A DNA stretch of 61,770 nucleotides, filler included, from Jimgerdemannia flammicorona (Eukaryota): assembly GCA_003990765.1 (NCBI GenBank). It is 3 parts of 3 records of this genome, joined end to end, with 100 filler letters (N's around TTAATTAATTAA, not from the genome) between each part and the next. Parts side by side here need not be neighbours in the genome. Positions count along the whole stretch, not along the records: positions 41,253 to 61,770 come from RBNJ01001662.1; 2 more parts are not named here. One strand, written 5' to 3'. The notes beneath the pieces were generated by a model. The model was not told the origin of the DNA and did not search any database. It saw only the letters and a program-made list of their open reading frames with translations. The translations under genes and the position numbers were made by a program. Every line of letters starts with the position of its first letter. Within the stretch, counting starts at the first letter, position 1. Positions 1 through 61,770 of the stretch are shown one piece after another.

Positions 1-175
1 CCTTGCAAGCAATCTAAGAGATAACAAGACAGTTAAAGATAAGAAGTTTGAGGACTATAAGATCTTGGGAAGGCACTCCAATAAGAACTTGCTTATAACA
101 ACTTGAGTTAGTCTAAGAGATACACCTTGAAGAGAATCTGGCATATTTGAAGGACTCAGCGACCACTACGTGACA
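1..175 (+). mobile_element. 3' end of an LTR-like element (same family as 44347-49254), cut by the contig edge
   Basis: Near-identical reverse complement of 44347-44523 and ends in ...CTACGTGACA (CA terminus). It abuts the decayed LINE. Confidence 0.85.
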
Positions 176-3100: not shown

Positions 3101-4172
3101 TTTACCAGCAATTACACCACCCTGGGGTTCCACCTCAAGTAATATACCATCAGAACACACACCTCTCCAACTATTAGCCCAGCCTTCAGTACTTTCTCCA
3201 ATGGCCCAGCCTCCTCAAAGCCAACCTCCACTCCTTTCAGTCCCTTTGAAACTTTATGGACACAGCTCTAGCCACTTGCTTAGCAATCAGCCCCAGTATC
3301 ATTTTTGCCATCACTGCCAAGCCTCTGAAGCACAAAGTAACAGTGAATTCTAAGATCAACTTCTTGAATAATAGTCACTACCAGGTCCATTACACTATCT
3401 GCTAGATCTCCCATCTATCCAAGCCCTATCCTCTCAGCTCTTCCATCAGTAGTTACATCTGGATTTTTTTCCAGATTGGTAGTCCCACTGTCATTAGTTA
3501 TCACACTCACTCTAGCCACTATACCCTCAGCTCTACTACTCCTTCCACCAAGGGCTGCACCCTCATATCTGATTATCTATACCATCTTCTTGCCCTTCCT
3601 CAGCCAGTCCTCTAGCCCAGATGCTGGCTGCTCTCCTTTTGCTATATCTATGAAACTTACCCTCTCTGTTTTCTGCCCTCTGACCCTGCTCCCTCCCCTT
3701 CTATGACCTCCCATCAGCAGACCCCTCATACTCTCCCCCAAGCCAGGACCTCTCCCTATATGCTATCAGTTGAATATACTAGAGCCACTCTACCTAGTAT
3801 ATACCTCAGAATATATATTAGTTGTCATATTATTAGACTCCACTCTCTGAAAAGTGTGTTGTGAGTATTGCTAAAAGGTTGTATAATCTGAATATTACTG
3901 AAGAAAGATGATGCTCAAGCCTGTCTTAATTATATTACTATATCAGCTCTTTGTTCTAGTTAAGTATAGCTAAGATATCTGATCTAAGTAGTCTCAGACT
4001 CTCTAATAATCTCCAAGTACCACTACAGTATACTGAGAGTAGCTGAGAGTAATACTTACTATCTAACCACTTTACACTAATCAGAAGACCCTACTAATAT
4101 AGTATTCACCCCAGCTCTGATAACTATCACTAGTCTGATACCTAACTGATCTACTATAATCACCCTTCTGTC

Positions 4173-5718
4173 TAGTACTCCCAAAATGAATATTTGAATC
4201 AATTTGAAGTAAATATATATGGTATTCAAATCAAATTAATTCAATTTGATTCAAATATTGTTTTGATTTCCAAATTAGGACATATGAGTTTTTATCTGAT
4301 TTCAGTAACCTTAGTGTTATTAGAAAGCTATTATAGAGAGCTTTTCAATAACAGCTCCTTTCTCTGCTACCTTACTGGTCACAAGGTTTGGTAGGTGACC
4401 TTCCGAGTCCCCTTTCCCCTATTTTTACCCCCTCTACCTTGGGTTGGTTTACTGTGCCTGCAGGGGCATGGTGGGAGGAGGGCAATGGTGATAAGTTGCC
4501 CCTTTATCAGTATTGGATCAGTGCTTTCTCCACTTTTTTGTGGATTCTGGTGCCTTCGGCTACATCTAGGGTATACTTATTTGGGTATAGTGCCTTCTTC
4601 CTTTTGCCATTACCAACAAGGTGTTGTCTCGGTATATCTTGGGCTACATAGGGAGTCAGCCGACCTTGGGCATCAAGTGCTCAGTGTAGGTTACCTACAG
4701 GTCCTCAGTGTCTGTAGTGGGGCCCTCTGGCTTTGGTGAGCTTCCCAGTGAGTGTGGTTCTGACATAGGTGACTGCTTTTCAGGTGTTGTCGAGATGGGA
4801 GGGGAGATAGCCATCACAGATAGGAGGAAGAGTAATAACAGTGAACCAGTAGGGTACCAGACTGGGGGCAGTCATCGGGGCTGGGGCAGGTACTGCTTCA
4901 GTGGGGCCTTTTGATTGGTGTGGCATGGTTAGGTGGTAGGTGTCACTATCAGCTTCTTTTGGTGGTCAGTGGGGTTGGGCTCCAGTCATCAAGAGAGGTC
5001 AGGAGGCCCGAGGCTACCCATTTCAGGCATCTTGGCTACACTCAACTGGAACCAAGAGCTGACATGGCAATGTGATTGAGGTCTGCAGGCTTGAGTAGTG
5101 GGGTATTGGGGGTTTCCTCTTGCCTCACGTGTAAGTCCTTTACTCACCTCGACTGGGAGAACCAGGCCCTACCCACCATGTTGTGCTTTGATGAGGGTTT
5201 TTTCTTTATCTGTCATTCTCTTTGGGGTGGCAGGGGCTATTCTATTTGGCTTGGGCATGGCCTTGTATATATGTTGGGTTCTCAGGCATGTGCTTTCGGT
5301 CATTGGCATATGGTTGGGTTTCCCCTGGTGGTAGGGAGAGCATGGTGTGCAGAATGAGGTATGGGTCTAATTGGCCCTACTGCACCTGATATAGTTGAGC
5401 TGCTGGACAATAGCTAGTCTAGGTTAATGAGGGGGCAGTGCTTGGTGGGTGGTGGGGGAGGGTTTTGGCCTATATAGTCTAGGTTCTCTTCCAATAAAAA
5501 TCCGCGGGACATGAGTCCATAAAAAAAAAAAAAAAAGAGAGCTTTTCAATAATACTAGTTTCATCAAAATTAGATGAAAACTTATAGAGTTATTGAGAAA
5601 AATGTTTGTGTCCTAATTTGGAAATCAAAATAATATTCAAATCAAATTAAATCAATTCAATTTGAATACTATATATATCTACTTTAAATTGATTCAAATA
5701 TTCATTTTAGGAGTACTA
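4173..5718. mobile_element. hAT-like MITE (~345 bp once the nested insert is removed)
   Basis: TIRs of >110 bp (TAGTACTCCCAAAATGAATATTTGAATC... / ...GATTCAAATATTCATTTTAGGAGTACTA). Perfect 8-bp TSD CTTCTGTC at 4165-4172 and 5719-5726. Confidence 0.9.
4352..5535 (+). mobile_element. Non-autonomous ~1.2 kb poly(A) retroposon, copy 1
   Basis: AATAAA near 5493, poly(A) at 5521-5536, and a perfect 17-bp TSD AGAGAGCTTTTCAATAA at 4335-4351 and 5536-5552. Homologous end to end with the copy at 45802-49142. Confidence 0.9.
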
Positions 5719-14183: not shown

Positions 14184-16469
14184 ATGACTAATCTTCACTG
14201 AACCCATGGTACAAAAACATGAAACGGATAGGAAATCTTATCACGTGCAAATTTGTGTGGCGTCGCGCGACAAGTTCGTACTCCCGAGTTAGGACATTTT
14301 TGTAAGGAGATGTTTATCTATATAAAAAGCATACCATGTCCACCACATCGATCGAACACATCGTTGTAACAGAATTTTACAGTGATAATACGATTTCGAC
14401 ACGCGAACACAAGCGCATCTTGCGAAATCGTGAAAAGGCGAAGTCGCCGAAAACACGAACACAAGCGGGGTCGCCGCAATCACGAATATAGATCACACAT
14501 GTAATACGCAGCTAGTAACTTTTAGGAAATCCGAAAGTTCGAATGCAATCTGCAATCAGCATGCAATACGCTTGGTGCGGTTGCTCTAGTTATAAATAGC
14601 CCATAGACCAAGGAGATTGAGTCCGAGGTGAGGCCGGGCAAACCGAATACAGAAGAATAGAGAACACGTTTTCTCAACGCAGAATTACGCACGATCATGC
14701 CTCTTCGCTATAAGCAAGAGCTCCCTTACACAAGAGGTCTGTGTATCTCGAATAAAGTATAGCACATGATTCATGTCGATCCGCTACATTATGGAAGTTC
14801 GCTTATCTTAACCACTTTGTATATGTCTGGGGCAATACGGTGGTCTGAAGAGCTTGCATATTGCTTGGTAGGTGAATCAGTTTCGCCAGGTTTTAAAACT
14901 CTGGGCATAAATGTACGCCGTAGTCTTTTGCGATTTGTGCATTTCGCAACGCATATACTGTAGGTAAGTTTAGTTAAAGCATACGGAGTTGATTTGGATG
15001 AAATTTAATCGGCTCGATTTGATTCGATCCAACACGAAAAGAAGCGAATGGTCACGTGTAATAAGTCAATCGATACGGTGGTATCTGTTTTCAACCTTTT
15101 CATGTGTCCTTTGTCACAAATTGACTGACGTTATTCACTAAGAATATGATAGTAATACTGAAACAATTGCGCGGATTTTGTAACGAAGTCGGACTTGCAA
15201 TAAAAGTCTTTGCTGGCTGCGGATTGTGTAGGCCGGGCTTATGGCTCGGGCTTCCGAATAAGCAGATTACGTGAGGTCTCTGCGTTGAAGGGCTCGCCCA
15301 AATGTCTTATCTCAGGGTCCACAATCAATGTTATTTCCGGTTATTGCTGCATTGTGGGTATAGATACTCCTTATATGTGGTTGGCAATCGGGCGTATACT
15401 GCGGATTACCCCTTTGACTGGCGATCGGCCCTCGTCTTGCCCAATTGACCTACACGATGGTGTTGGTAACCTTATGATTCTGGCCCCTTGTCCTCACGTT
15501 CGGATTCTCAATCATTTTGGTCTTCAAGTTTCTGGTGTGCGGTTGGTATTATTACATCAAGGCTGGCAATATCGACCGCATTGAAATTTACGTGGACCAC
15601 CAACAGAAATTTGGGGATAAAAACCAAGTTGTTATGGGAAACCTTGTTATGGGAAACCTCTGCATGTGACGATAACCCTGTGATCTGCGGCGAGCCCACC
15701 GGTACGCCCTGAACACACCCTTACTATACTTGTTCTGAGTGACAAGGTTGGAGCCGATTCGAATTAAACTTTGCTTGATTCGACTTGAGTCAGAAGATCC
15801 TTACCTCCTGAATTTCACATTGCTTGGTAGCCGAGTTTCGGCTAATTGGCATCGTCCACCTCCGCGGAGAACATACCTGCTACCAAACTAGAGTGTCTTA
15901 AGCGCGCGCGGAGTGAGTAAACCGACTTAGATGAGATCTGATTCGTTCGGAGCTACTTCAATGGAGAAAGGTGGGGCAAACATTGCAACTTGAACAATTC
16001 CCGTGTCTCGGAACCTATGGTGACTTTAAAAATAGATCTGTCTCACTAGCCTAGAGTGTTCTTAAGCGCGTGTGGTCGATGAGGCCCCGTCGGAGTAAAT
16101 CAACCAGATTTGACCTAGTCGGAAAATAACTATGGGAATTTACAAACGTAGATCTGTGTCACTCGCCATATTTAGTAATGATCCGAGGTATATTTACCCA
16201 GCACAGCCAATGGGTTCTGCACGAGATATTTTATTGCATTTTACATATACCACGAAAACTCCGCGCAAATAGATAATATCCATTTCCATAATAATATAAA
16301 CGATGTGAAATTATTGGATTGGAAGAAGAACAATACTATAGAAAAGGGTACGGGTAACAAAATAAGAGATCGAGTCCTGGGGACAGCATATAATTCAAAT
16401 TAGGTGCATAACACGGCCATCAGACCATCATAATGTTTTTCCTGACCAATATTTCCAACAACCTGGTCA

Positions 16470-16826
16470 TCACGCGTGAGTAATACAGAACACACCGATA
16501 GTCGAAGGCAGTTTCACAATCATGAAAACACCTTCGGGCCTTGAAAATATATGGACGCCTAGGGGGGTCTCTCTGAGCCTGGATGCTATCATATCTTGAT
16601 CGAGTTGGGCCTGGAATTCAAGCATGCTGGCGCTGTCGATCTCACGCTCGTGTGTGGCGAATTCCGGAGAATGAACAAACTCTCTGACAGCTGCCAAATT
16701 CCGGTCTAGGTAGATGGTCGCGTCGACGACGCCTGTACCAAGCTGGCATTGAGGAGGCGCGTCGATGTTATGCTCTGCGTTTTGTACGATTTCAGCTAGG
16801 GACGAAAACTGCAGATTCGACGACAT
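16470..16826 (-). CDS. Orphan 118-aa protein, paralog of 20065-20463
   Basis: Intronless ATG ORF sharing TIYLDRN...EFV.SPEFA..EREI.SASMLEFQ.QLDQDMIA...PLG.HIF..PE.V..I.KLPSTIGVFCITHA with its paralog. Confidence 0.65.
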   Translation of the reverse strand: MSSNLQFSSLAEIVQNAEHNIDAPPQCQLGTGVVDATIYLDRNLAAVREFVHSPEFATHEREIDSASMLEFQAQLDQDMIASRLRETPLGVHIFSRPEGVFMIVKLPSTIGVFCITHA

Positions 16827-19800
16827 GGCAGGCTTGAAATTTTACTGAAATGTATCATTTAAATATTTTTATGAGTTATTGAAGACCGTTTGCAATAAAA
16901 TAAAATAATCAATGACAGAATTCTCAGTAAAATGACTCGCACGTTTTGGAGGTTGCGAGAAAGGAGCGAAGTGTCTTGCTAGTGAGTTTTGGATGACACT
17001 TATATATTTCTTTTTTTATTTGCGGGCTTAATAATGTTTTTTTTTTTTTCTTTTAACGATAATGAGACGCGCACGAAGCTGCCGTGTATTATTTCATGGC
17101 GAACAAAGTACAAAAAAGACATCGAACCCGAATCGGGAAAGTTTTTTTGTCAAATTTGTCATGCTAATCCGACAAGATCGACCATCCAGTAGACAACGAC
17201 TCTCACGCATGGTAATAGGACAAAGGCGACGTGTGCGCCCATAGTCAGTCGACTGTTCACATGTCGCATGAAGTTAAACAGAGTGGTGGGAATTGGAGTA
17301 TGAAAAGAACCGGCCAATGATCGGATTGAAATATCTGCGGGCCAAGAAGGTTTTGACAATTATGCGACGTAGTACCTTCAGCGATTATTATTCCGGATTT
17401 TGACCTGAAACGGAAGTTGAGGCCTCGGGATCTCATCAGAGCTCTCCCCAGTGACGCCATACCACATATTAAGGAGGTCAAATGACATTTCGTGCGTGTG
17501 AGGCCTCGCGTGGATTGGAGAGTTCATGTGCACCGACTAGGCAATGGTTTTCGATAGCTGCACAAGCCATCACGCTTAATGTTTGGTCCGAGCTAGGGTA
17601 AAGAGCGATACTCTCCCCTGGTGCCCTGGTGCTTCGATGAAGTAACTATTGCTATTCTCCCGAGTACGCCCAATTCAACCCACTATACAGGATGGAGCTT
17701 GTGAATAATATTCTTGACATAATATTGAAGGCAGTTTCCGTGTCCCAAGTAAGCTCGACAGAACACGAAAGAGGTGGGAAAGGGCCATATACGGCTGGCG
17801 AAGAAAACCAAACCCTACTTCCGAGATCCAAAAGCAATCTTTCCTCGTATTCCTTACATTGGTCAAGCTTTGTACACCATCCCAATTGTAGCAAAGTGCC
17901 TCTCCATGACTTGACCCCGGAAGCCGTAACATTTGCGAATTGCCAACAAGACTAAGCGTAATAAGAGTCGGATAAGGTTTTTGCACCAATTAATGGTTAA
18001 AGAGAAAGCACGAACCATGTGAAAAGAAGATCCATTTTTGTATATAATGAACTCGATCAAACCCTAGTTTCAAAACGTGGATTGAACCTTAGCGTTCCGC
18101 AAACCGGGCGGACCGAAGTGTTTCAACCTAACTCGGCCAAACTCGTGTTTTTTTCTTTTGTTGAATTCCTCTCGGAGGATTGGTTCGGATATAACGAAAC
18201 AAAAAAAAAAAAACCCCCCGAGTAAAACTGAGCCGAATATATTCGGCGAATCAGCAACCATTTGAATCAGCTAGCCGAGAGGGTAAAAGTTTATTTGGGG
18301 AATAGGAATGGGTTCCTTCCTGTGAAGGATTTAGGTTTAATATTACATCAAGGTTTAGTTTGCGAGTTAATCAGAGTTTAATAGATCGAGTGGTGCGACC
18401 TTTTAAGTCAGTGGGTGTGCGGCCCGCACAACCGTAAACATATACCTCCGCGGAAGAACAGGGATCTCCTTCATTTTGTGTTTAATACTTCAATTTTGGT
18501 GGAACCGCGACAGATTTAGGTTCGTCTCATTATTTGTGCTCATGACAACCTCAACACTTGGAACTTCTATTTCGTTATCCCCACACTCTATCATCCACTG
18601 GTTAATTTTATATGCACTCCCCCTAGCTAATTTTATATGCATTAACCCGCTCTCTCCGCGGTTTAAATTTTATTTTTATACATCTCCAAAAATAACAACT
18701 ATCAAACGAACCTCACAATTCTTTTTTTTTGCTGGACCGTGACCCCCCTCTGTTTCGTACCACTCACTTATTCCAAGGGCTCTTCCAAAACAATATTATT
18801 GGCTGCAAACCGATCCGTGACCGACAACCCTGCAGTGCGTGACATCGCATTAGTCCCTGCAAGTCGCGTAACTTCTGGCCGCAGAAACAAAGAGGCATAT
18901 AAGATATGGTGGTAGGAGCGGAAAGCGACCAGCTTTTGTGGTCAAGGCAAAACGTATTAACATACGGTAGTAGAAACGGAGAGATGCTGCTAAGTATAGT
19001 AGAGGAGAGCCAGCCTTGCCAGCCTTGTAGTGGCGACGTGCCATTGTCATTGTGACTGCAGTGATATTTAAAAGCACGTGGACCAAGCTTTTTTTTTTTT
19101 TTTTTTTTTTTAAATATGTTATAGGTATATCATATATTGTGAAATAGACCGTATTAGAAACGGAGACTAAGCCGGGCGGGCTGACCGAGATTTCTTTCTT
19201 TGTGCCGTAGCGCAAGTTTATTATGCAAGGATATCCTCGTGGGGTCTATTCGGCAAATAAAAAAAATTGAAAATTAGAACTCCGCGTGAACCCAAGAATG
19301 GGGACCAAGCTTGCTTCTAATTATATGACACCATATGAATTCAATAAAACAAATAAATAAATAAATAAAATCCATTGGAAATAACACAAACAGATAACGC
19401 ACGATATTAATGATAGAGTAAGAAACAAGACGGACGCCAAGTCCTTCGGGGAGCTGGGAGTTATTCACATGCACGACAGTACCGACAAACAATTGGTCCC
19501 GCGCGTTGTCACGGCGCATACAACGTTGCACTAGGTCATCCAGGCTGGAGATTTTCACAGAACCTTGATTGTGGCTCTATTGACTATGAACGATAGTGGG
19601 TGTGCTGTCAATTGTTATGAACAAAATCTATGGCCTCGACCTCAAATAATAGATGGACGTTGCAATGGTTCAGCCGCCTAATATTCTCCCGTGACCCATT
19701 TTCGTAGATATATAGTTCTAGCCGCCGCCGCCGTCCTCTGCAGCATGCTTACCATAAAATAAACTCGTAAGCCGCCCTTCCACTAGCGCCTCATTTTGTT

Positions 19801-20064
19801 TGCACATCTATGCCCGAACATAGCTATATGCTTGAATATTTCGGTGGCAACTATATCCACCGGAAACCTTAATGACACCGTTAGATTTTATCAGATTTAT
19901 TACATATACCGACGGAAACTCGGTGCAAGTAGACAGCATTCATTTTCATAATATAAATGACGTAACATTATTGGATTAGAAGAAGGGATTGAATCGAGGG
20001 ATGACATAATTTAAATTAGGTGCATAATACGGGGTTTCCAGATTCAGACTTCCAACAAGCACGG

Positions 20065-20463
20065 TCATCGCGCGTGAGTAATACAGAAGACACCAATAGT
20101 CGAGGGGAGTTTTAAAATCACCAAAACATATTCGGGTGTTGGAAATATATGGAGGCCTAGGGGAACCGCTCTGATTCTGCATGCGATCATGTCTTGATCG
20201 AGCTGGGTCTGGAATTCAAGCATGCTGGCGCTCTCGATCTCACGCTCGTATATGGCGAATTCCGGGGAATTAACAAATTCGCTGAGAGCTGCAAAATTCC
20301 TATCCAAGTAGATGGTCGGGACCGAATTCGGCTGGGGCTGAAATTGCTGCGCGTCGGCGATGACGACGGCTGGACCAAACTGGCATTGACGAAGCACGTC
20401 GATATCATGTGCTGTGTTTTGTGCGGTTTCGGCTACGGGCGAGAACGGAGGATCTAACGACAT
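20065..20463 (-). CDS. Orphan 132-aa protein, paralog of 16470-16826
   Basis: Same conserved blocks as the paralog, an in-frame insertion, and many synonymous differences. Confidence 0.7.
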   Translation of the reverse strand: MSLDPPFSPVAETAQNTAHDIDVLRQCQFGPAVVIADAQQFQPQPNSVPTIYLDRNFAALSEFVNSPEFAIYEREIESASMLEFQTQLDQDMIACRIRAVPLGLHIFPTPEYVLVILKLPSTIGVFCITHAR

Positions 20464-20528
20464 CGCGACGCTTGAAGTTTTACTGAAATGGATTATTATT
20501 ATTATTATTATTATTATTATTTGGGGGG

Positions 20529-35211: not shown

Positions 35212-36618
35212 CTAAGAAAAGTGTGGTGTCCGCCGAATGTTCAAGATCATCTTGAACCCCCGCCCAAGCCGCGAAAGCGTCGCGCGTAATTTACCTTTTC
35301 GCACGCGTTTCTCGGGCTGAACCTCGATCACGTTGGCCTTCTCCATCTTGGCTTCCTCTACACCATCCTCATTCCGCGGCCTCGCCCATCTCTTCCACAC
35401 ATTCGGCGCCTCCCGTCGAAACCTGCAGGGTTCCAAGTACCGCGCGGCGCCTCGATCCAGATGATCGGGGAGCACGATCTCCTCGAGCGTATCACACGCA
35501 GCTACAACGTCACGGATAAACGACTCGTAAATGTTTGGGCACGCCCTCAACGACAGTGACTTGATGCGCGGCCACATGCCGTCGCACACTATGACAGGAG
35601 CACCTCCCAGGAAGCACGGGCAGCCCTCGAGGTCGATGTATTCGAGCCTACGGCCGTGGCGGAGGAGGCAGTAGTAGAGGAAGTTGTTACTGAAGGACCC
35701 GACGTTAACAAGGCGGAGAGTACTGAGCGCGTGAGACCAACGGACGAGGGTAAACAAGCCATCGTATGTGAACGCCGGCATGATGTTGACGTTTTTGACG
35801 GAGATACTGACCTCGGCGAGGCGTCGGCAGGAGCGCGCCAGTGAAATAAGGACGGGATCGATAGTTTCGCGACGGTCGTGGTGCCTGTAGTGAAAGGAGC
35901 GTAGGTTTGACCAGGCGGGGACGACATCGCCGAGGTGGTCGTTGCGGAGAGTGCGGAGGCGGACGTCAATGAGGGCAGTGCAGCTGCTCAACGCGGCGTG
36001 GGTGTTGGAGTCGAGAGTGAATCTAGAGAGGACGAGGGATTCAAGGCGCTTGGAGAGAGCGACGATGAGGGAGTGAAAGGGGGCTCGGCGGGCGGGATCG
36101 CCAGAGCCGCCGTGGAGGTGGAGGTGAGATATGTTTCCACAGGCAGATTGGAGGTTGAAGATGAGCCGCGGAAGGCGGTGGAGGCGGTTGGGGCGCGGAA
36201 TGGTCGTGTTGAGATTGAAGCGGAGGAGAGTGAGATTGGGTGGTTGTTGTTCGAGGATATAGCAGAAGGAGAAAACGGTGCGATTGAAGTCGGAGTCGTT
36301 TGCGTCGTCGTGGTCGATGGGGATGGTCATCCTCTTTATGAGATTGAGGTGGTCGAGCCCGTTACGTCGGGATTCGGCGAGCAGACCGGCTATCCGGATT
36401 ATTTCATGATAGGTGTAGCTGTACCACTGGTTGTGGTGTTTGTGGTAGAAGAGATGGTTGAAAGTTGTGGGATCAACGAATTCATCGAGAAACGGGCGCG
36501 CCTCGGTGTGCCAGGCCTTACAGACTAAGGAAGAGGCGAACAAGTCGAGAGGTGGTACGGTGTACGGTGTTGGCACGAGGTAAAGAAACACTATATACAA
36601 GGTGTCAGGATTTAGCAT
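35212..36618 (-). CDS. Intronless F-box/LRR (RNI-like) protein, ~468 aa
   Basis: N-terminal F-box 'MLNPDTLYIVFLYL...LFASSLVCKAW' and LRR repeats (LEYIDLEGCP, IKSLSLRACPNI). The start is probably the ATG at 36618 rather than the longest ORF start. Confidence 0.85.
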   Translation of the reverse strand: MLNPDTLYIVFLYLVPTPYTVPPLDLFASSLVCKAWHTEARPFLDEFVDPTTFNHLFYHKHHNQWYSYTYHEIIRIAGLLAESRRNGLDHLNLIKRMTIPIDHDDANDSDFNRTVFSFCYILEQQPPNLTLLRFNLNTTIPRPNRLHRLPRLIFNLQSACGNISHLHLHGGSGDPARRAPFHSLIVALSKRLESLVLSRFTLDSNTHAALSSCTALIDVRLRTLRNDHLGDVVPAWSNLRSFHYRHHDRRETIDPVLISLARSCRRLAEVSISVKNVNIMPAFTYDGLFTLVRWSHALSTLRLVNVGSFSNNFLYYCLLRHGRRLEYIDLEGCPCFLGGAPVIVCDGMWPRIKSLSLRACPNIYESFIRDVVAACDTLEEIVLPDHLDRGAARYLEPCRFRREAPNVWKRWARPRNEDGVEEAKMEKANVIEVQPEKRVRKGKLRATLSRLGRGFKMILNIRRTPHFS

Positions 36619-37757
36619 GGATGAATGGCCGGTCTTCAACTTGCAGTGTTGTGAATTAGTATGGGCTATGCTCAGACGCGAGCATTCGGTTGATTGTGTT
36701 AAATCAGTCATTGTTGTGCAGCAAACACAGATTGGCCCCCGACCCCTCGCCAAAACAATCTTGTCGAGCTTAATGTTTGGCCAGCTGATTTGCATGGTGG
36801 GGTGTGCTCAAATAAACTTGATAAAACTCGAGAAAATGTTCAGAAAGTTGACGCCTAATCCTTCGAGAGAGATTCTACTGTGTCCTGCCCTCCAATATCC
36901 TGCATTCCATCACTGTAATTCTTGAGACGTGCATAGCTCTCTTGGACAAATTTTTGACCACCAATGCCGTGATATTTTTATCTATGATATAAATAGAAAC
37001 ATTGGGCGGAGTCCTTAAAAGCCCAAATCTCGTTATGGCGAACCTTTTCTTCACGGGTACTTGAATAGTAGTGTCCCATGGCTTTATTTAGGTGGTATTG
37101 TGCGAGTAATCGTTTGAATCATTCGTTACGGGGGTTGTGGGTAGGGGCGTTTGGATGCGTGATCGATGCTTGTTGGCAGGCTTAGATCGTGTCGTGTTTA
37201 AATTAGTAGATACGTTTCTGCAGATGGGTACGGAGATGTTCAAGTGTGCGTTGCGCCGAGATAAGAGGGGCCGAGCAAACAAATAAAAGATTGCATTGTC
37301 AGATAACAGCCGCCTGTGTATGAAACGGGAAGGGGAGCGGGCGGTTGCACGCTCGAAGAATATGCATTACGATACGGCGCTCTTTCAATGCAACGAATGC
37401 AACGGCGGCAATTATTTTAAAAGCAAAGAAATTCGAGTCCTTGACCTGTCGCGTTAAAATTTGCCCACATGAACGGTTACTCCTACATTTCTCACGAGCA
37501 GAGAAATTCAAAACATTTGCTGGCGTAGCTCTTGTCTTCGTCGTGCACGAACTACATGAAGTCAGACAATGTCTCTGCTCATGGAACGTGGCCCGTCAAC
37601 ATCGAAAATCTAAAAATCAATCCAGTGTCAAAAATAATGAAGATTTGATCTGAAACCTGATCTGAATCAACAGAATGACGAGAAAACGTAAATATATTTA
37701 TTTGCTCAGGCACGTGATTTTGTTGGATGAGATAACACATGGTGTTCGCTTCAAAGC

Positions 37758-38344: not shown

Positions 38345-39459
38345 CTAAGAAAGGTGGGAAAGATAATAGTTCAATCAAAGTGCTCTCATCGCCGAATGTT
38401 CAAGGCCATCTTGGACCGCTGCCCAAGCCGCGAAAGCATTGCGCGTAATTTGTCTTTTCGCACGCGTTTCTCGGGCTGATCCTCGATCACCTTGGCCTCC
38501 TTCACATTATCATCATCCTCATTCCGCGGCTTCATCCTCTCTTCCACACATTACGCCCCTCGCGTTGAAACCTTCTGGGCTCCAAGTACTGCGCGGTGTA
38601 CGGATCCAGATGATCTGGGAGCACGATCTCCTCACACGGTCACAACGTCGTGGATGAACGACTGATGTTGACATTTTCGACGACGATGCTGATCTCGGCG
38701 AGGCACGGGCAGGAGCACGCGAGGACGATAAGAATGTGGTCGATATTTTTGCGGGGTCATGATGCCTGAGTGGAAGGAGCGTAGATTTGGCCAGGCGGGG
38801 ATGACATTGGCGAGGTCGTCATTGTAGAGAGTGTGGAGGCGGACGTCGATGAGGACAGTGCAGCGGCTCAGCACGGCGTGGGTGTCGGAGTCGAGAGTGA
38901 AGTTAGAGAGAGTGAGGGTTCGAAGTGCACGGAGAGAGCGGCGATGAGGGAGTGAAAGAGGACGCGGTGGGCAGGGTCGCCAGAGTCGCCGTGGAGGTGA
39001 AGGTGAGATATGTTTCCACAGGCAGATTGGGGGTCGAGGATGAGCTGCGGAAGGCGGTGGAGGCGGTTGGGGCGCAGGATGGTCGTGTGGAGATTGAAGC
39101 TGAGGAGAGTAAGGTTGGGTGGTTGTAGTTCGAGGATAGAGAAGGAGGAAACGGTGCGGTCGAATTCGGAGTCGTCTGCGTCCTCGTGGTCGATGGGGAT
39201 GTATGAGATCGAGGTGGTCGAACCCGTTACGTCTGGATTCGGCGAGCAGGCTGGCCATCAGGATTATTTCATGGTAAGTGTAGTTGCGCCACTGGTTGTG
39301 GTACTTGTCGAAGAGATGTTCGAAGGTTGTGGAATCAACGAATTCATCGAGCAGCGGGCGTGCCTCGATACCAGGCTTTGCAGACTAAGGAGGCGAACAA
39401 GTCGAAAGGTATGATGTGCGGTGCCGAGACCTTTTGAGGCACGATGCCGGGATTTAGCA
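38345..39459 (-). pseudogene. Frameshifted, internally deleted paralog of the F-box/LRR gene at 35212-36618
   Basis: Collinear nucleotide homology, several frameshifts and a ~280-bp deletion in the LRR region. Confidence 0.9.
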
Positions 39460-39723
39460 TGGATGAATGGCCCAGGCTTCAACTTGCAGAGAGCATTCAC
39501 TTTATAGTGTTAGATCATTGTCGCGCAGCAAACACCGACAGGTCCCTGGACTCTTGCCAAAACAAGTCTGTCGGACCAGGCTGATTTGCATGATGGGATG
39601 TGCTCAAATGAGCTTGATAAAACTCGAGAAAGTTGGCATCCAATCCGTCATGAATGTTGAGAGGTTCTTCTGTGTCCTGCTCTACAGTATGCATTCGATT
39701 ACTTTGAGACGAGCGTAGCTCCT

Positions 39724-43028: not shown

Positions 43029-44113
43029 TAGTGCGGACTTTGGTACCAATTCTTCAAAGAATCATTTTGTGCTGAATTGGTGCCAGATAATTATGTACAG
43101 AGATAATGCTAGATATAATTAGTACAAAGTTTTGCAAAGAATCTGCACAGCAAAAATATATGTGCTAGATACTGTGCAAAATTCTACACATAACATTCTA
43201 TTGCCAGATTTGGTGTGGGGTCCTTAGGCATGAGTTGTAATTACATCTAGATATAAATTGGCTACTGATACGGTTATTTGTAAATTCAAGCTCCACGGAC
43301 ATTATATTCAGATACCCAAACACCACTTCTAGAGAAAGTAACTGATCGCATGACTTCATTGCTCAGTAATCGTCACTCAGCAGTCGATCGCTGCTCAACA
43401 GTCCACCGTCCAATTCGTCGTCCATCGTCGCTCAGCAGTCCGTCGCTGCTCAGTCCATCATCATTCGTTCTTCAGTTCATTGTAGTCGATCATCCCGTCC
43501 ATCGTCCATTCCATCATTGCTCAGAAGTTCATCATCCAGTCCATCGCCACTCAGCAGTCCATCACCACCCAGCTGTTGACCAGTTATTCTTAGCTGATGA
43601 TGGTGTTATTACAGCTCTCATGGACTTCTTGGCTCACATTAACCCCTATGGTGATCATACAACACTTTGGGACAAGATAATTTGATGGCAATACAAGTGT
43701 GATGGGACGATATGATGGACTGATGGAGATCTGGTACAGGTGGATTGGAATAAGTTTGTATAGTTTCTGTATCTAAATATTTGCAACTTGTATCCTTTGC
43801 CTTTTATATGACTCAAATGCATGGAGCACATAATACAAATTCTTTTCAATAAAGCTATATAGTGTAGAATTCATATGCACTTACGTGCAGAGTCCGCACA
43901 TTATACATATTCTGTGCCTAATGCAGAATCCATACATATATATGTATAGGGTCTGCACACACTATTTGTACATATTCTGTGACTAATGCAGAATCTGTAT
44001 ACACGGATTTAGTACATAATGCAGAGCTTGCACATAATTATGTATGCAGATCCTGTATAGGGTCCGCAGGATTCTGAGTAGATCCCACACAGGATCGGCA
44101 CCGAATTCGACTA
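43029..44113. mobile_element. Possible non-autonomous TA-flanked (Tc1/mariner-like) DNA element
   Basis: Degenerate ~25-bp TIRs (TAGTGCGGACTTTGGTACCAATTC versus the reverse complement TAGTCGAATTCGGTGCCGATCC), TA on both sides, subterminal GCAGAATC/TGTGCA repeats and CpG depletion. Confidence 0.45.
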
Positions 44114-44812
44114 TATTTTGTTTATTACCTAGTTAGCTTGTCACCCGTTGTGCTTACAGCACCTATGTAACTACTATTCGCCATTAAGCAGGAATATAAA
44201 CACGATTTTGACGGTACTGGGGTGAAAATGTAAACCGCTGTCGTACTGGGGCAACAATTGAGATGAAGCACAAGGTGTGAGAATTGTGGTGAATAGTATT
44301 GTGCGAAACTTTGTAGATTGAGAATTTTGAGGGCGTATATACATGGTGTCACATAGTGGTCGCTGAGTCCTTCAAATACATCAGATTCTCTTCAAGGTAT
44401 ATCTCTTAGACTAACTCAAGTTTGTTATAAGCAAGTTCTTATTGGAGTGCCTTCCCAAGGTCTTATAGTCCTCAAACTTCTTATCTTTAAACTGTCTTGT
44501 TATCTCTTAGATTGCTTGCAAGGAAGTGTATATATTGCACTGAGAGGAACTGACTTTATTTCAGAGGAAATAAGAGGGGTATTTATATAAAATATAATTC
44601 AATGGTTGCTAAGATATAAAGCTAAATATAAATTCCAATAACTAAAATAAAATGTCAGGACAGAAAAACTGCCAAGTTCCAGGGTCAGTACTGATGGTTG
44701 TATAGGTTTAGGATGCTGGCATAATTTTAGTAGTATAGGAAAATAGTACTGGAATAATTCAGTATCACATCAGAATGCTGGTGCTAGAATAATTCAGTGT
44801 AACCAAAGAACT

Positions 44813-45655
44813 TTAGAGCAGAATGTTCAAGACCATAGGGGCTTCATCCTCATCAGAGATCAGAATGTCTTCAAAGGAGATGAGGTCTGCAAATTTGTTA
44901 TTATCACATAGGTTATATGTTTTGTGTATATTATATATCTCACATATATTGTGCAGGATAATGTCATCACTGATGATATCATCATGTTTGATGGTGGCAG
45001 GAATAAGGATGTCTGGGGCTCTCTAGTCTATGAGGTTCTCTTCCACAAAATAGGGGACAAATGTGGGGTCTTGGGGAGGTCTAACCTGGATGCTTGGGCC
45101 TTGGAATACTGAGATCAATTCTTGCAAGAATTGGTCTGGGTTGTCCTGGAGGATAGGATGCCAGAAGTCTTCTACTTCATCACTATTGAGAGTAATAGTA
45201 GACTGGGCTTCTGTAGCCACTCTGGCTTCTAGTGCATTGATACAGTGGGCTGACAGGTCCCTGAAGTCTGAGACTCTAATATACTCCAAGTTGGGGATTG
45301 ACTATAGTGCATGCCTGAAGATCTGATGGATCTTCTTAGCTGTCCTTGTTTTGTATATATCTATGAGAGTGGTATCTTATAGCTCTTGAGTGCTGGTCTG
45401 TGGGAACTTCTGGTAGAGGAGGTTTCCTATCTTATACTCCTGTCATATTTAGAGGCATTCAGTAGCAATAGTGATCCTTGTTTCCATTTTATAGCAGTAG
45501 AGGATATAATAATAAGAGTCACCAGTACCTAGGTTGATACTAGGAGTTCTTCTTGAACAGGTCCTCATGGCTCTTCTAATGTCTTGGAATATCCTTTCTT
45601 CAACTGAGGTACCTTGGTGATTTCTTGATCTTGAGGTTTAGTGAGTAGCAGACAT
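44813..45655 (-). pseudogene. Decayed ~280-codon ORF inside LTR-like element A
   Basis: One frame interrupted only by point-mutation stops: ...ERIFQDIRRAM...QEYKIGNLL...AKKIHQIFRHAL*SIPNLEYIRVSDFRDLS... ending in an acidic tail. Confidence 0.7.
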
Positions 45656-45799
45656 TTTGTTTATGGTAAGTCTTTGAGCTATTTTGGGATTGGTGGGTCT
45701 TATTGGTTGCTGCTACTGCAGTTCTTTGATCCTTCTTTTATATTTCTCAAGATACCCATACTGTGGTCACAATGACTCACAGTTAGTCATTATTGCTTA

Positions 45800-45882
<83 letters not shown>

Positions 45883-46759
45883 GACTCAAAGTCCTACAGA
45901 TTTTTATTAGAAGGAAATCTAGACTATATAGGTCAAAACCCTCTCCCACCACTCACCGAACAATATTCCCCCATTAACTTAGGCTACTAAATTGTCTAGC
46001 AGTCCCACTGCTCCAGCTATACCTATCAAACACCAGCTATATTGACCTCCATGACATAGACTAGACTTGTCTGCTTACCAGGGCTGGATCATCATTTATA
46101 CATGAGAGCACACCTATATGTTGGATCTAGCAGCACCAGGACTGAATAAAGAATAGCCCCCCAGACCCCAAAAGAAAGCCCGAGGCAAAGAAAAAACCCC
46201 CTAACTAACCAATAGAGAGTAGAGTAGATTCAAAGTAAGTAAGTAAAGGACTTACATACAGAACCTTCCACAAAGAACTTACATATAGGCTAGGGCCAGA
46301 AAAGATCCCACTCCCACTCTCTGAGCCTGTGGGTCTCAATCACATTGCTATGTCAGCTCTCAGTTCCAGTCAGATACAGCCAAATAAGGAAAGTTTCATT
46401 CCCCAAGTCTGTAGGCCTTGATTGCATTACCACATCAGCTCCTGGTTCCAGTTGGGTACAGCCAGGATACCGGCCCCTATACTACTCTACCCCCTACCAG
46501 CGAATCAAAAGGCCCCACCAAAATATTGTTTACCCTAGCCCTGATGACTGCCCCCAGCCTAGTATTCTACTAGTTCACTGTTATTGTCCTTCCTCTTATC
46601 TGTGACAGCCATCTCCCCTCCCATCCTGACAACATCCAAAAAACAGTCATCTATACCAGAACTGCACTTGCCGAAAAGCTCACCAAAGCCAGAGGGCCCC
46701 ACTACAGGCACTGAGGACCTACAGATAACCTATACTGAGTACTTGACACCCAAGATCAG

Positions 46760-48827
46760 TGTAAGAGGGTTGCTTTTTAGGATAATCGTTACATAGTTCT
46801 GGAAGGGTTTTCTGGAGGATCTGGATATTCTAGAAGACTGTTTTCTTATGATCAAGATCAATTTCGTATAGAGTATGTCCTCTATGCTTATTGATTTCAA
46901 AATCAGGTTGACGTCTCAACCAAAGTCCTTTTTTTGGACTAGTTCTAGATGTTCAGGATTTTCCGTATTTCAGGAAGTTCAAGAAACTAAGACCAGCTTA
47001 GTTGAATTGATATATCGCTGCAGACAATACTCAATTAAGAAATTTCGTGATGGGGTTAGGAGTGGGACCTAACGGCAAGCGGGTTTACTTAAGGGTGGTT
47101 TGTGGGTTATTTGAATAGGTTTATTTGCTATTTATGATATTGCTATACTAGAAGTAGTTGTGTGAAGGGATATTGTGGGAAAGTGTTCAGGAATGTTCTT
47201 GTGTGTTCAGGTCTGAGATTCTGAGGTCTGGGGGAGGGGGTATTTATACTAGTGAGGGACTATCTGGACTATGCTAGATATGGATGTAGCACTAAGTGCC
47301 TTGCTGAGTCGGAATACAGTCACATAGTACAAGTGTGATCTGACATGTCAAGAGATTGTCTGACTACTGAGTCAGTTCACAGTCATGTCATACAATGCTA
47401 ATCTAACTATACTATGACTGCTAGGCTATTTATGGGTTTAGGCACTATCTGGGTAGTCCTTGATGACATCACCATCGATTGCATCATCTCTGATGAAGTA
47501 GTCATCTAGGAAGAGTGGTTCGTGGATTACTTCTCCTTGTTTACTGAGATAGTAATATATTGGGACTTCATCACCATCCCACAGAATAGCATCATCTGTC
47601 TCATAGGCTAGATAAGGTGTTGGTGGATGAAGGATGGGTGTATTGTCTTTGCTTTCATTGGATTTGCTGTCTGCATATCTTCTATAGGTTACAGCACTAT
47701 AAGTTGCAGGATTGTAGTAAGCTGGCGGCTGTGGTTCATGTCACTTGTACTCAGGTAGTGGAGTGGTTGGTTCAATCTCGAGGGTTGTCTGGAGGTACAG
47801 GTTGTGTTCTCCAGTCTCTTCATTGTAGTTGAAGTAATCGGGGGTGAATGCGGGTTGGTATTCGTGCCAGTGGTCATTGTCCCAATAAGTCTCGTATGCA
47901 GTTATGAACTGTTATACATAAGTTCATCGGCAAGGTTGGTGGAGTGATCAGGGTTGGCAGAGATCCTTGGCTAGAGGTCATGTTGGTATCAGAGGGATTA
48001 TTGTCTTCTGCTTTGTCTTCATTGAAGTGGATTATATCATAAATATCTTCATGGCATATCCAACTTGGGGCATTTGCAAGATGTGATCATTGGGGTGTGG
48101 GAAGGTTCTGTCTGTGGTTTCAACATACTTGAGGTACTTATGGTTGAGTTCTTATATCATGTCATCGATTTGGCCATAGGACAGGGTAGCAACCATTTCG
48201 CTGATAATAACTCGGAGGTGGGGAATAATGGTACTGTACTCGTAGAAGAGTTCTCGATGTTTGCAGGCGATGAGCTTCTGGTGTTGAGACATCTGGGTAA
48301 TGTCTGTATTGTGGTGGTGTTTGACTATGTCTTTCAGGAGGTGGCCGATCTGATAGTAGTTTGAGATTTGTCCGATTCGGTAGGCCTCGCTAAGTATGTT
48401 CAGGGCATTCTATCAGGCTTCCACAAAGTAGAGGGGTGCTAGACTATGGATATTTATGAGAGACAGAGGGGGTATAGCTTGGTTGATAATGGCATTCCAA
48501 ATGTCAGTACAGATACAGTTATAGATCTTGGTGGTCATGTTTGTGTGTTTGGAAGTTGTGGTTGTTTGTTTGTTTTGGTTCTCTGATTCGATGCATCTTG
48601 GTGCTTAGTATATATACATTTGGTCCTGATTGGTAAGATTCCGTTTGTGTAAATCTTGTGTTCTGTGACTTTATATTGACTCAGCTTTGTGTGCTGTGAC
48701 TTCGGTTTGACTCAGCTTCATGATCAAGCAGGTGATTTCCAGATTTGTTCAGAGGTCATGTGTGATTTCAGTGGTTTGTTCAGAGGGTGACATGTAATTT
48801 CGGTGGCTTGGAGGTTGTGCACTTACA
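46760..48827 (-). mobile_element. Long solo-LTR-like element B (2068 bp)
   Basis: TGTAAG...CTTACA termini and a 5-bp TSD ATCAG/ATCAA; the host retroposon sequence resumes exactly after it. Minus-strand TATAAATACCCC at 47237-47248 is followed by AATAAA near 47120. Confidence 0.85.
47438..48538 (-). pseudogene. Decayed ~366-codon ORF inside LTR-like element B, homologous to the ORF in element A
   Basis: MTTKIYNCICTDIWNAI...NYYQIGHLL...ACKHRELFYEYSTIIPHLRVIISEMVATLS... ending in an acidic tail. Its own TATA-like TATATATA lies about 70 bp upstream. Confidence 0.7.
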
Positions 48828-50402
48828 ATCAACCAACTCCCTACATAGCCTGAGATACACCAAGACAGCACCTTATTGATAATGACAAAAGGAAGAAGGC
48901 ACTGCACTAAAATGAATACACTCCAGATACAGCTGAAGATACCAGAAACTGCAAAAAAGTAGAGAAGACACTGATCTGACACTAATAAAGAGGCAACTTA
49001 TCACTATTGCCTCTCTCCCACTACCCTACAATAGGTACAGCAAACTAACCTGAGGTAGAGGAGGTAATAATTGTGGAAAGTAGACTTAGAAGGTTGTTTA
49101 TCAAACCATTTTAACTGGTAAGGTAGCAGAGAAAGGGACCTGGTCATCATTACTCATCTTGTATGCCATATGATCTCCTTGTGCTTCAATCTGGTGGCTT
49201 GCAAGGAAAGGCTGTCTCCTGTGCTGATGTCATCATTCTGGGGTCACCATTACAATGGTTTGTCGCATGGAAGTACCTAGTGTGAGCACTGTTGTGGGTA
49301 TTTATGGAGGTGGAAGACGGAATTATTTCAGAAATTGTGGGGCATTCTTATTCAACTACCACGTATTCTCAAATATTTGCGCATGCTTCCCGACATAACA
49401 TTTGACTTGGGAGGAACTTCGCCATCAGAATTCTCGTCTGGGCTTTGCAACTGCGAAATGCACAGGTCGAAATGGAGCGCGGTGGAACACCTTGTGGCAA
49501 ACGTATATACATATTACACCGAATTAAAAGCATCAAGGTCGAATATGAGGTAAGGCATCACGCAAACGCTTTCTCTACATCGCCATCCATGAAATCAAAG
49601 CTCATGGTTTCCCCCTCTCCCCTCCCCTCCTCCCCCTGTAAAAAAAAAAAAAAAAAAAAAATTAATACATAAAGGAACCTTTGACGTTCTCAAATTGAAG
49701 GCCATTGAGAACAAATCCCGGGCTTCGTTAACGACGCTGGCTTTAGCTTTATCGTTTCCTGGTTTGAGCTAACCCAGAACAACAGGCTGCCTGCAGCACC
49801 ATAAAAATATCACTGTTTCTGACATCGGCCAAGACAAAGCTGAATGTCAAATGTTTGGGGTGGACCATGACCTCGGAAAACAGAGGTCAATTCCAGCCGA
49901 GGAAGGTGGAAAAGCTGAGATTCGTGATATAAAGAAAAATTGTATCATTGTCTGACATGATGGATACTTTGTACCTGAGCACCATAGGCGATTAGTTGAG
50001 TGTGCGGGATGATAATCTATTTCTGATCTGAGGTTTCTGATAGAATATATTGTGGTACATAACGCGGATGCGATTCAATGTAATCTTAATCGCAACTTTG
50101 CAGTTGGGCTCTCTAGGATTATTCGACATAATTCGTACTAGGTAAATACAGCAAACTCTTTACAACATATTATATAAGTGCATATCGACTTCACCATCCA
50201 CAACGACATAAATGTACATAGATAATAGCATGCAGCGAAAGCTGTTGTATGTAAACCGGTTAGTTTGCACCCGAAAAAGAAGTACAACACCCCGGAATCT
50301 GGACTCGAACAAATCTCTTTGACGAGTTTCGGGAATAAATTGACAAAAAATATTGTTCTAATAGTCTAATGTCAGGAATTTGGAAATACGTGAAAGGTCG
50401 GT

Positions 50403-58862: not shown

Positions 58863-59534
58863 GTGCATTCCCAGCGCGATGATTCTAACATCCGATGAAT
58901 GGTCCACCTCAGGATCAGGAGCGCAAGATCAAAGAGGTCGAGGCCTATCTCCGCAACCTGCAAGACAGGTACCGCGACCGGCTGGGGCCAGAGCCCCTTT
59001 CGTTCTAAGAGGGTCAGTGAACGTTCGGGTTTAGGCAGCGTGTGGTTTTTCTTATTCCTTTGAAGGTGCGTGAGGCCGTTAGATTGTCCAGTCGTGCGTA
59101 GAACGAAGCTGATGGACGGGAGCAATTTGGGAGACGGATTTTTTTTGTTAACGAAAATTGCATTCAGTGCATTTCTATGTTGCCCCTTGGTCCTCTACAG
59201 TTTGATTTAATTTTCATTCATGACTCTTGTATCTGTCCCACTATATAATCCCTCCAGCGGGAATTGTACACTGTATCCGAATCCTATATCGGCATTCTCT
59301 CCCCATCTTTCCTATGAATTGTTGGAAATATTCAACTCGACAATCCTTACCAAGCATGATGCTTTTAACTGTATCACCACAAAATTCACGAATGATTGTT
59401 TATAAGGACCATAAAGAACCAAAAATACAATAATCCCAGATATTATACTACCACATCCACCATCCACCATACCCCTCTCCTCCTCTATCTCATCCATTCT
59501 TCCGCTGGATCCCTCTCTCCCTTATCCTCCAACC

Positions 59535-61180
59535 TCACCGCCTCCAATACTGCGCCCACTTGTGGATGGTTTCCATGACCTGCGGGAACAGCGCGTTGAC
59601 GGACTCAGTGATGAGCGACTGGAAGTAGTTGATGGCAGCCTCCTCCGACAGGTCGAGCCGGAACTTCTCCTGCACCTGTTTTCGTGATAATATGAGAGGA
59701 GGACGCGACGATCAGTGATGCAACATAGACACCAATACCCTCGCCGGCGCCATGTAAATACTTTTTTGCTTCCCACCAAATCACAGCAACATACCTTGAG
59801 CACGGCCTTATCTGGCTCAATTTTAATATCTGGCACATTCGCATCGACCATAAGCGCGAACAAATTGAGGATCAAATTAGCGTTCTTCCTGAGGATAATG
59901 AACGCTGTGAAACAGTGGCTGCGGAACTTTTGATAGTGGGCGCTGTTCGCACCGCCCATTGCTTCGATCATCTCCTTGCACAGCTTCATAGGCGGAGGGA
60001 ACGGCTTCGGATCACGCCCCAGGATGAACCCAAAATCCACGTGGAACAAGTTGCCGTCGGGGGAGAGAAGAAGATTGTCTAGGTGCCGATCGCCTACGCC
60101 TAGAAGGTAGGTGATTACGCAGTAGCCGGCTGTGGGGGGACGGAAGTATGTTCGAGGGAGGAAGTGTGGGTGAGACGATAGAAATAACCTTTGCACGAAA
60201 TACCACCCACCGCCATATCCCTCTCCAAAGAACTTACCGCAACTCTTGATATACGTATCCATTACCGTGGCATCAACTCCATACGTCGAGGGGCTATTCT
60301 CGTCGGGATGGTGGCGCCTGAGATAGGCCAACAAATTCCCATTATGTTCTGTGAGAACATTGGCGAGCGAGGCGGACGGGATGAATTGCATGAGGCCATG
60401 GTCGGAGCCCGTGGCAAGGACCTTGTAAGGGGTGAGGCGAAGGTCGAGGTTCTCCTTGCGTAGCAACTTGTCCATCAATGTGATGATCTGGATCACCAAT
60501 TGGTCCTGGCGGAGGTCGTCGCCCGTTTTGAATATTACCTGCGTGGGGATGTGCGAGGGATGTCAGTAAGGGTTCTCAACACGCCTTTGAGGCGACGATA
60601 TTATTAGCCATCACACACGCACCACGCACTACTCGTCAACACGTACTACTCGTCATACTTACAGGATACTCCCCCTCGTCGACCGTGGAGAAAAACAGCC
60701 TGAGGGGCTGCAGATTGCTGTTGTACACTGACGCTTTCTCTGTTTCCCGCAAAAAATGTATACAAACACAACATATACACTAGCGTCAGCACCCAAATGA
60801 TCTATATCACCTACTCCTCTTCTTCATCGCAGAAGAGTACAAAAAAAATACCCACCAGCCACCAAACCCCCGACCTCGAACCTCGGGTCCAGCGGCAGCG
60901 GCAAAGGAGCGAATGAGGCCAACGTGGGAAACGCGCTGGTGCCTCCTTTGGGGTCGGAGATCATAGAGCGGAGGCGCTCGATCTGTGCAAACGGGACAGA
61001 ACTGTCACAACTCGCCGCTCGAAAAATCCCAGCAACCAGGTATTCAATCAAACAGAACTACCATCGGCCTCACATCATTCCATTCATACCCAATGAACTA
61101 CTTTCCGACGTTACAGTCCTCACTTCATTCCATTCATACCCAATGAGCACCTTCCCATGTTACCGTCCTCCCCCACCACC

Positions 61181-61214
<34 letters not shown>

Positions 61215-61742
61215 CACGCACCTTCTTAGACCTAATCTCCTTCATTGCGCGTACGTCTCTCGAAATTTGCGACAGCGCAACGATAAGCTCGCTCTGCCTA
61301 CGCAGAATCTCGCGCCGGTTCGACATTGACGGAATCTAGGGGCCAAAACAAAACGCGGCCATAACCGCACGCGTACAAGAAGGTAAGGAAATCCAATATC
61401 ATTCTGTGCACATGATGGGCCGCAACCCCCCACACACATCCCTATATAAAAAATATATAACCACACCTCCTCCATGGCTTTCATGAAGTCGAACGCGACC
61501 TTCCCGTACATCTTCCTCCCAATCATCAGATCCTTCCCGTACATATTCACAGGCGTCGGATCTGTGCATTCGACCATAAGGTACCAATGGAAATAGTTGC
61601 CGAGCACGGGATTGCGCACCGCGCGCTCGATCAGGAACTGTGCTAAGGGGGAGTCCATTCCCGGGGAGTCCGTCACGCCCCACGCCGTAAAGTGTTCGAA
61701 TTTCAGGGCTTGTACGAGTTGGAGGAGATAAAGGAGAAGATC
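59535..61742 (-). CDS. VPS34: Class III phosphatidylinositol 3-kinase Vps34, 3' part (multi-exon, cut by the contig edge)
   Basis: [116 protein letters not shown] and [12 protein letters not shown]. Confidence 0.97.
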
Positions 61743-61770
61743 CTGTATGTTTTTTTTTTTTTTTTTTTTT

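Follow-up and report, generated by a model that had tools for sequence, protein, structure and literature searches.

Organization of the locus

A region in the genome of the eukaryote Jimgerdemannia flammicorona (assembly GCA_003990765.1) holds two elements, A and B, that have the features of long terminal repeats (LTRs) of retrotransposons and that each carry the remnant of a protein-coding gene. The region was analysed within a stretch of 61,770 nucleotides, hereafter the window, which joins parts of three records end to end; positions 41,253 to 61,770, where A and B lie, come from RBNJ01001662.1.

The elements are nested three deep on the minus strand: a poly(A) retroposon, H2, interrupts A and is itself interrupted by B (Table 1). 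Read in minus-strand order, A runs from 49254 to 49159 and then from 45801 to 44347, a total of 1,551 bp. Its termini (TGTAATGG...GTGACA) are short inverted TG..CA ends, as are those of B (TGTAAG...CTCTTACA). The target duplication of A, ATGG, is exact (4 bp, at 44343-46 and 49255-58). The copies of the duplication that flanks B, ATCAG and ATCAA, are one transition apart, and the duplications of both elements fall within the 4-6 bp range. H2 ends in a run of 77 A residues (45802-45878) and is bounded by an 18-bp target duplication (GATGAGTAATGATGACCA and GATAAGCAATAATGACTA, at 49141-58 and 45784-801), the copies of which are identical at 14 of 18 positions with all four mismatches being transitions.

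A second member of the H family in the window, H1 (4353-5536), lacks B. It matches positions 49136-48836 and then directly 46757-46503, and metagenome contigs of run X2 also lack B, joining 46754/46759 to 48836. The absence from H1 of 2,068 bp between the aligned blocks identifies B as an insertion into H2. The 3' boundary of A at 44347 is common to a second copy of A found at the start of the window; no primer-binding-like sequence was seen 3' of that copy. A first-pass annotation of this DNA had described A as ~1.55 kb with a 4-bp duplication and B as 2.07 kb with a 5-bp duplication, both with TG..CA ends. These figures hold, for A once the nested layout is resolved and for B with the empty site in H1 and in the contigs.

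Table 1. Features of the nested region and of the two LTR genes. Window positions refer to the whole stretch; LTR positions are counted from the first base of each LTR.
Feature	Window position	Strand	LTR position	Remarks
Solo LTR A, 5' portion	49159..49254	-		96 nt; starts TGTAATGG at 49254
A, TGAGTCA	45773-45779	-	119	36 nt upstream of TATA
Solo LTR A, 3' portion	44347..45801	-	LTR end 1551	1,455 nt; ends ...GTGACA at 44347
A, upstream TATA box ATATAAA	45737..45743	-	155	88 nt before ATG; putative promoter
A, gene remnant	44816..45655	-	ATG 243	280 codons; 6 in-frame stops (TAA x3, TGA x1, TAG x2)
A, domain common to B	45230..45592	-		residues 22-142; hhalign
A, TATAAATACCCC	44576..44587	-	1311	candidate genomic (LTR) promoter
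A, AATAAA	44555..44560	-	1338	candidate poly(A) signal
Second copy of LTR A, last 175 nt	1..175	+		95.5% identity; cut by window start
Poly(A) retroposon H2	45802..49140	-		splits A, hosts B; separate from LTR genes
Solo LTR B	46760..48827	-	LTR end 2068	2,068 bp; flanks ATCAG (46755-59) / ATCAA (48828-32)
B, TGAGTCA	48708-14	-	114
B, TGAGTCA	48677-83	-	145	abuts TATA
B, upstream TATA box ATATAAA	48670..48676	-	152	putative promoter
B, gene remnant	47440..48538	-	ATG 290	366 codons; 9 in-frame stops
B, domain common to A	48158..48514	-		residues 10-128 of P0002; hhalign E 6e-5
B, TATAAATACCCC	47237..47248	-	1580	candidate genomic promoter
B, AATAAA	47120..47125	-	1703	candidate poly(A) signal

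A and B as probable solo LTRs

Logan contigs of four runs, two of them soil metagenomes and two from a single organism, were placed on positions 44000-49600 at a likeness of at least 85%. Coverage is deep over A, H and B, whereas none of the four runs covers the unique flanks (44000-44186 and 49423-49600) at any depth; A, H and B are therefore multi-copy families.

The ends of these contigs show what borders A and B in other copies. On the 5' side of A, five contigs of run X1 carry a purine tract immediately before the TG at 49254 (..CAGGAGGAAGA|TG, agreement 0.99). A purine tract likewise precedes the TG of B at 48828 (..AAGAAGGGGAGAG|TG) in five contigs of run X2 and four of run X5. In run X9 the flank at 49254 is different and agrees poorly (0.61), which would be expected were some of the copies solo LTRs or 5' LTRs. 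On the 3' side of A, seven X1 contigs agree completely on the sequence that follows the CA at 44347 (CA|ACT-TGGTGCCCATTGG), and TGGTGCCCATTGG, located 3 nt after this CA, looks like a tRNA primer-binding site. No tRNA gene was found within the window.

Related copies thus have a purine tract beside the 5' end of both LTRs and a primer-binding-like sequence after A, and in the window A and B lie directly between their target duplications. These marks support the assignment of A and B as solo LTRs of two different LTR-retrotransposon families, in line with the LTR reading initially given to them. Recombination between the two LTRs of an element ordinarily leaves a solo LTR flanked by the target duplication.

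Layout inside the LTRs

The same minus-strand order of features, proposed at first pass, is found in A and B: the 5' end, a frame of 280 or 366 codons, TATAAATACCCC, AATAAA and the terminal CA. The 61.8-kb window contains exactly two copies of TATAAATACCCC, one downstream of the A frame and one downstream of the B frame, and three matches with at most one mismatch are present where 0.22 are expected. The 12-mer is also found in a metagenome contig, L001, that codes a relative of the A protein (see below). The AATAAA signal follows TATAAATACCCC at 27 nt in A and at 123 nt in B. TATAAATACCCC is a candidate promoter of the genomic RNA and, read in this way, it places the gene in U3. Upstream of each ATG there is in addition a TATA box accompanied by TGAGTCA. 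Four of the ten TGASTCA sites of the window are in A or B, which together represent 6% of its length, a modest enrichment that is only a lead.

The two gene remnants and their relatives

Neither frame is open in the window. The positions of the stops in A are occupied by Q or W in its relatives, seven of which (138-271 aa, 51-73% identity) are coded by metagenome contigs of 0.8-1.6 kb; further members of the A cluster reach 323 aa, on contigs of up to 2.4 kb. The B frame has one uninterrupted relative, P0004 (247 aa, 60% identity), which covers B residues 116-367. A search with B residues 1-140 found no relative, so the amino terminus of B stands on one sequence.

Contig L001 (1,345 nt), the single locus returned by a scan of JGI metagenomes, has an open frame of 323 codons followed by GTATAAATACCCC and AATAAA. 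The alignment of its DNA with A is confined to the coding part (68% over 733 nt). Over 215 core codons the two sequences differ at 74, 43 and 111 first, second and third codon positions, respectively, with a proportion of non-synonymous differences (pN) of 0.257 and of synonymous differences (pS) of 0.71, the latter saturated. The A frame has evolved as coding sequence and both frames are, judged by their sequences, remnants of real genes.

The family is rare in protein collections: a profile search of 1.84 billion representatives yielded six members, none of them from the B family, and scans of IMG/VR with both alignments gave nothing. As the first-pass annotation had noted for gag, pol and transposase motifs, no Pfam family, these included, matches the A and B frames or the seven uninterrupted relatives. 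The sole Pfam row among the relatives, for P0013, has 12 bits (E 0.23) for a cutoff of 27 bits.

Both window gene copies are dead, having been mutated mostly by C-to-T and G-to-A changes. The differences between the window copies (44347-49254) and the related contigs are almost all transitions, as illustrated by the counts for run X1 (A>G 176, T>C 144, G>A 117, C>T 82; 26 transversions). Of the 40 differences with the best support, 33 are C-to-T changes, on one or the other strand, that are specific to the window; the base that follows them is A in 15 cases, T in 8, G in 6 and C in 4, a mild CpA bias.

Kinship of the A and B proteins

At the DNA level no similarity between A and B was detected (best E 0.39), as initially reported, and the alignment scores of their non-coding parts are not above those of shuffled sequences (111 versus 99 +/- 8 and 109 versus 104 +/- 7). 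The relation is found in the proteins. A profile of the close relatives of A compared with B gives an hhalign E value of 0.029 and a probability of 1.7%. Addition to this profile of four distant A-family members found by profile search (P0022-P0025) brings the E value to 6-7e-5 (score 40.5, 116 columns), the aligned regions being residues 22-142 of A and 10-128 of B. In a shuffle control B scores 40.4, while 130 shuffled sequences have a mean of 13.6 (standard deviation (SD) 2.2, maximum 20.1) and the reversed sequence scores 14.9. A hidden Markov model of the A family, built without B and searched in all six frames of the window, matches only A and the amino terminus of B (48158-48556, domain E 1.2e-5).

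Homology of the amino-terminal domains of A and B, of ~120 residues, is supported by these sequence comparisons. The homology of the two genes asserted in the first-pass annotation is to be narrowed to this region, in which hhalign and hmmsearch agree. The motifs it had aligned by eye (I..DI..A, Y.IG.LL and A.K....F......IP.L) fall within the significant hhalign alignment, and the three are also present, collinear, in the distant member P0025. The acidic tails that it had aligned as well do not follow: their match is unsupported, the second hhalign alignment (E 0.34) being located elsewhere. The last 70 residues are acidic in all eight proteins examined, with ratios of K+R to D+E from 4/12 to 4/21; the tails are therefore alike in composition and are not shown to align. 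The A and B proteins are best explained as an amino-terminal helical domain of an undescribed family joined to unrelated middle parts and to acidic carboxyl-terminal regions.

Predicted structure of the protein

The AlphaFold model, based on 16 aligned sequences, has a mean predicted local distance difference test score (pLDDT) of 64.5 and a predicted template modelling score (pTM) of 0.56. The helical amino-terminal domain is confidently predicted (10-residue block means of pLDDT 78-97 over residues 61-160) and the tail has low confidence. Foldseek found no match at E <= 0.001 in PDB and BFVD, a sequence search of PDB returned nothing, and ESM Atlas gave no usable match for P0006 and P0004. 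In a VIA-align comparison with 48,161 chains the best match is the VirB core domain (Z 4.0, root-mean-square deviation 3.9 over 76 residues), below the level at which a fold can be named. Weak rows over residues 64-166 comprise SopB and P1 ParB (Z 3.4), KorB and Spo0J (Z 3.0) and other helix-turn-helix proteins.

Proposed organization and alternative explanations

A and B are probably solo LTRs of two families, each with a complete accessory gene between the LTR 5' end and the TATAAATACCCC/AATAAA pair. This pair would provide the promoter and the poly(A) signal of the genomic RNA of the element. The upstream TATA box, ~150 nt into the LTR and with TGAGTCA beside it, would be the promoter of the gene itself. 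The gene mRNA would end at the LTR's own poly(A) signal, making the LTR a self-contained transcription unit, and a 5', a 3' or a solo LTR could each express the protein. The protein may bind the LTR of its element in the nucleus and activate it through the acidic tail. Its identification as a nuclear DNA-binding activator of the element's own promoter, suggested by the structural model, is tentative. A broader proposal, which must be viewed as unlikely, is that each LTR constitutes a gene complete in itself, whose product is a sequence-specific regulator working in trans on every copy of the family, and that this module moved between unrelated LTR lineages by recombination.

A number of observations weigh against the main interpretation. 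No full-length element is seen in the window, and its 139 frames (stop to stop, at least 90 aa) have no reverse transcriptase, integrase or gag domain detectable with Pfam. The purine-tract and primer-binding readings rest on consensus ends of 15-30 nt of metagenome contigs, which stem from related copies, possibly from related organisms, and the primer-binding side of B is not among the 24 loose ends listed out of 470. Should the genomic RNA start from the upstream TATA box, the gene would be located in a very long R and not in U3. Considering that each unit in the window is enclosed by its target duplications on its own and has no gag-pol near it, A and B could also be complete short mobile units of non-LTR type, with TG..CA ends and one gene each, that is, the new element class offered as an alternative in the first-pass annotation. 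This is very improbable, since the purine tract at the 5' TG of related copies of A and B and the primer-like TGG... 3 nt past the CA of A are hallmarks of LTRs bordering an internal region, and solo LTRs are ordinarily left between duplications by recombination. Other unfavourable points concern the kinship of the proteins. It is limited to ~120 residues, the other ~240 residues of B having no counterpart in A; BLASTP of A versus B is not significant (E 1.2), and the hhalign probability of the widened profile is only 62-66%. Taken with the result of the first profile, the lack of DNA similarity and the unaligned middle and tail regions, they would fit two unrelated frames that resemble each other by chance or composition, each LTR family having gained its own orphan gene. 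Such independent origins are improbable in view of an hhalign score ~12 SD above the 130 shuffles with a flat reversed control, of an hmmsearch run in which, over all six frames of the 61.8 kb, B gave the sole match besides A itself, of the collinear motifs in P0025 and of a signal that grew as the family profile widened.

The function is the least secure part of the interpretation: the activator role is drawn from VIA-align rows of Z 3-4, which are common for helical models, and from residue composition. A role in RNA export or in anti-silencing comes next in likelihood, with the same anatomy of the LTRs. Rev and Rem export or stabilise unspliced RNA for retroviruses, and an RNA-handling factor doing the same for the unspliced RNA of the element would accord with the arginine-rich start of P0005, P0006, P0013 and P0021 (8-10 K+R versus 2-4 D+E in the first 40 residues) and with the leucine-rich end, ..LNFLL, of A-family proteins. 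A precedent is CERV, described in PMC10309623 as an accessory protein of the LTR retrotransposon Cer1 that is required for genomic RNA export. The basic amino terminus is nevertheless absent in B (1/1), P0023 (4/3) and P0025 (3/7), and no RNA-binding family or fold was matched with Pfam, Foldseek or VIA-align, which leaves the RNA factor an unlikely candidate. Somewhat less likely still is a protein that opposes the silencing of its own family by the host, be it through small RNAs, DNA methylation or repeat-induced mutation. The presence of the protein family in several LTR lineages, the heavy mutation of the repeats of this genome by transitions and a gene on every LTR, well placed for action in trans, speak in its favour; yet the window copies were mutated nonetheless, and Pfam, Foldseek, VIA-align and ESM Atlas revealed no similarity to a known suppressor or to another family.

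Relation to known systems

The closest known layout is that of sag of mouse mammary tumour virus (MMTV), the product of which is called an 'LTR-encoded ERV protein' (ERV, endogenous retrovirus) in PMC11998498. The gene sag resembles the genes of A and B in that a whole protein gene is inside the LTR and hence on every LTR copy. There is no sequence relation, no Pfam family having matched the A and B proteins. The Sag protein spans the membrane and acts on T cells of the host, in contrast to the soluble-looking, helical and acidic A and B protein, and the host here is a non-animal eukaryote with a retrotransposon that has no env in view.

Foamy-virus Tas/Bel1 is an element-encoded activator expressed from its own second, internal promoter that feeds back on the LTR. 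The likeness to A and B is an activator made from its own second promoter, the activator function being putative in the present case. Unlike the A and B genes, the Tas gene and its promoter are in the internal region near env and not wholly in the LTR, and no sequence or fold relation between Tas/Bel1 and the A and B proteins was found.

A further comparison is with additional open reading frames (aORFs), such as the plant aORFs, rice Retrosat2 ORF0 and bdelloid rotifer ORF3, which are genes additional to gag-pol for which no function is known. The types of rotifer ORF3 are common to very different retroelement types (PMC5408684). The aORFs belong to the internal region, whereas the A and B gene comes after the LTR start, which a purine tract abuts. 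An assignment of the gene as an internal aORF between pol and the 3' LTR was considered and rejected, as in related copies the purine tract abuts the first base of the LTR and the ATG is inside the LTR. Retrosat2 was likewise discarded as a precedent for an LTR-borne frame: its ORF0 is located upstream of gag-pol (PMC3485330). A plant aORF review (PMC7264820) uses neither 'within the LTR' nor 'in the LTR' nor 'inside the LTR'. The open full-text literature, to which the search was confined, yielded no description of a retrotransposon LTR that contains a gene. What is new here is the accessory gene, which belongs to a new family and resides in retrotransposon LTRs.

Other repeats and chromosome context

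The H family, which is separate from the LTR genes, is a poly(A)-tailed retroposon of ~1.2 kb with copies at 4353-5536 (+) and 45802-49140 (-). Its AATAAA, A tails of 16 and 77 nt and target duplications of 16-18 bp are the signature of insertion mediated by long interspersed nuclear elements. H1 has AATAAA, the 16-nt A tail and a perfect 16-bp duplication (GAGAGCTTTTCAATAA); a three-frame Pfam scan of its sense strand found no coding domain. A 110-bp inverted repeat of 90% identity on both sides of H1 (4173-4282 / 5609-5718) looks like a small foldback element, or one resembling miniature inverted-repeat transposable elements, that was the target of the H1 insertion.

Positions 176-4170 form a 4-kb stretch with very strong strand bias (guanine-cytosine skew of -0.38 to -0.51 over 1-4000), which is probably a heavily mutated non-LTR retroelement. 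A sub-threshold RVT_1 match (E 0.008, 16 bits versus a cutoff of 29.6) is found on its minus strand at ~1376-1637. Two other direct repeats are present in the window. Segments of ~1.4 kb at 35231-36939 and 38390-39721 are 76-79% identical, the first overlapping an open frame of 531 codons (35215-36807, minus strand) that has no Pfam match, and the pair 16228-16880 / 19885-20518 is ~75-78% identical over 100 and 470 nt. The region 59525-61769 (-) codes a host class III phosphatidylinositol 3-kinase of Vps34 type (E 1.8e-91 versus the fly enzyme, 1.4e-83 versus yeast Vps34), which gives a eukaryotic chromosome context.

Biological significance

Retrotransposon LTRs are regarded as regulatory and non-coding. 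A conserved gene inside them would matter in several respects. Each insertion makes a further copy of a gene in this position, which persists, as a possible gene, on all solo LTRs; it also gives the element a product that is masked by host annotation pipelines. Interest is tempered by the fact that the window copies are dead. If the LTRs do code for a regulator that reaches all copies of the family in trans, scattered solo LTRs would keep feeding family activity after their elements are gone. An accessory protein family that is new and spread across LTR lineages bears on how retroelements gain regulatory genes like those of retroviruses, and it cautions against equating 'solo LTR' with 'non-coding' in every case.

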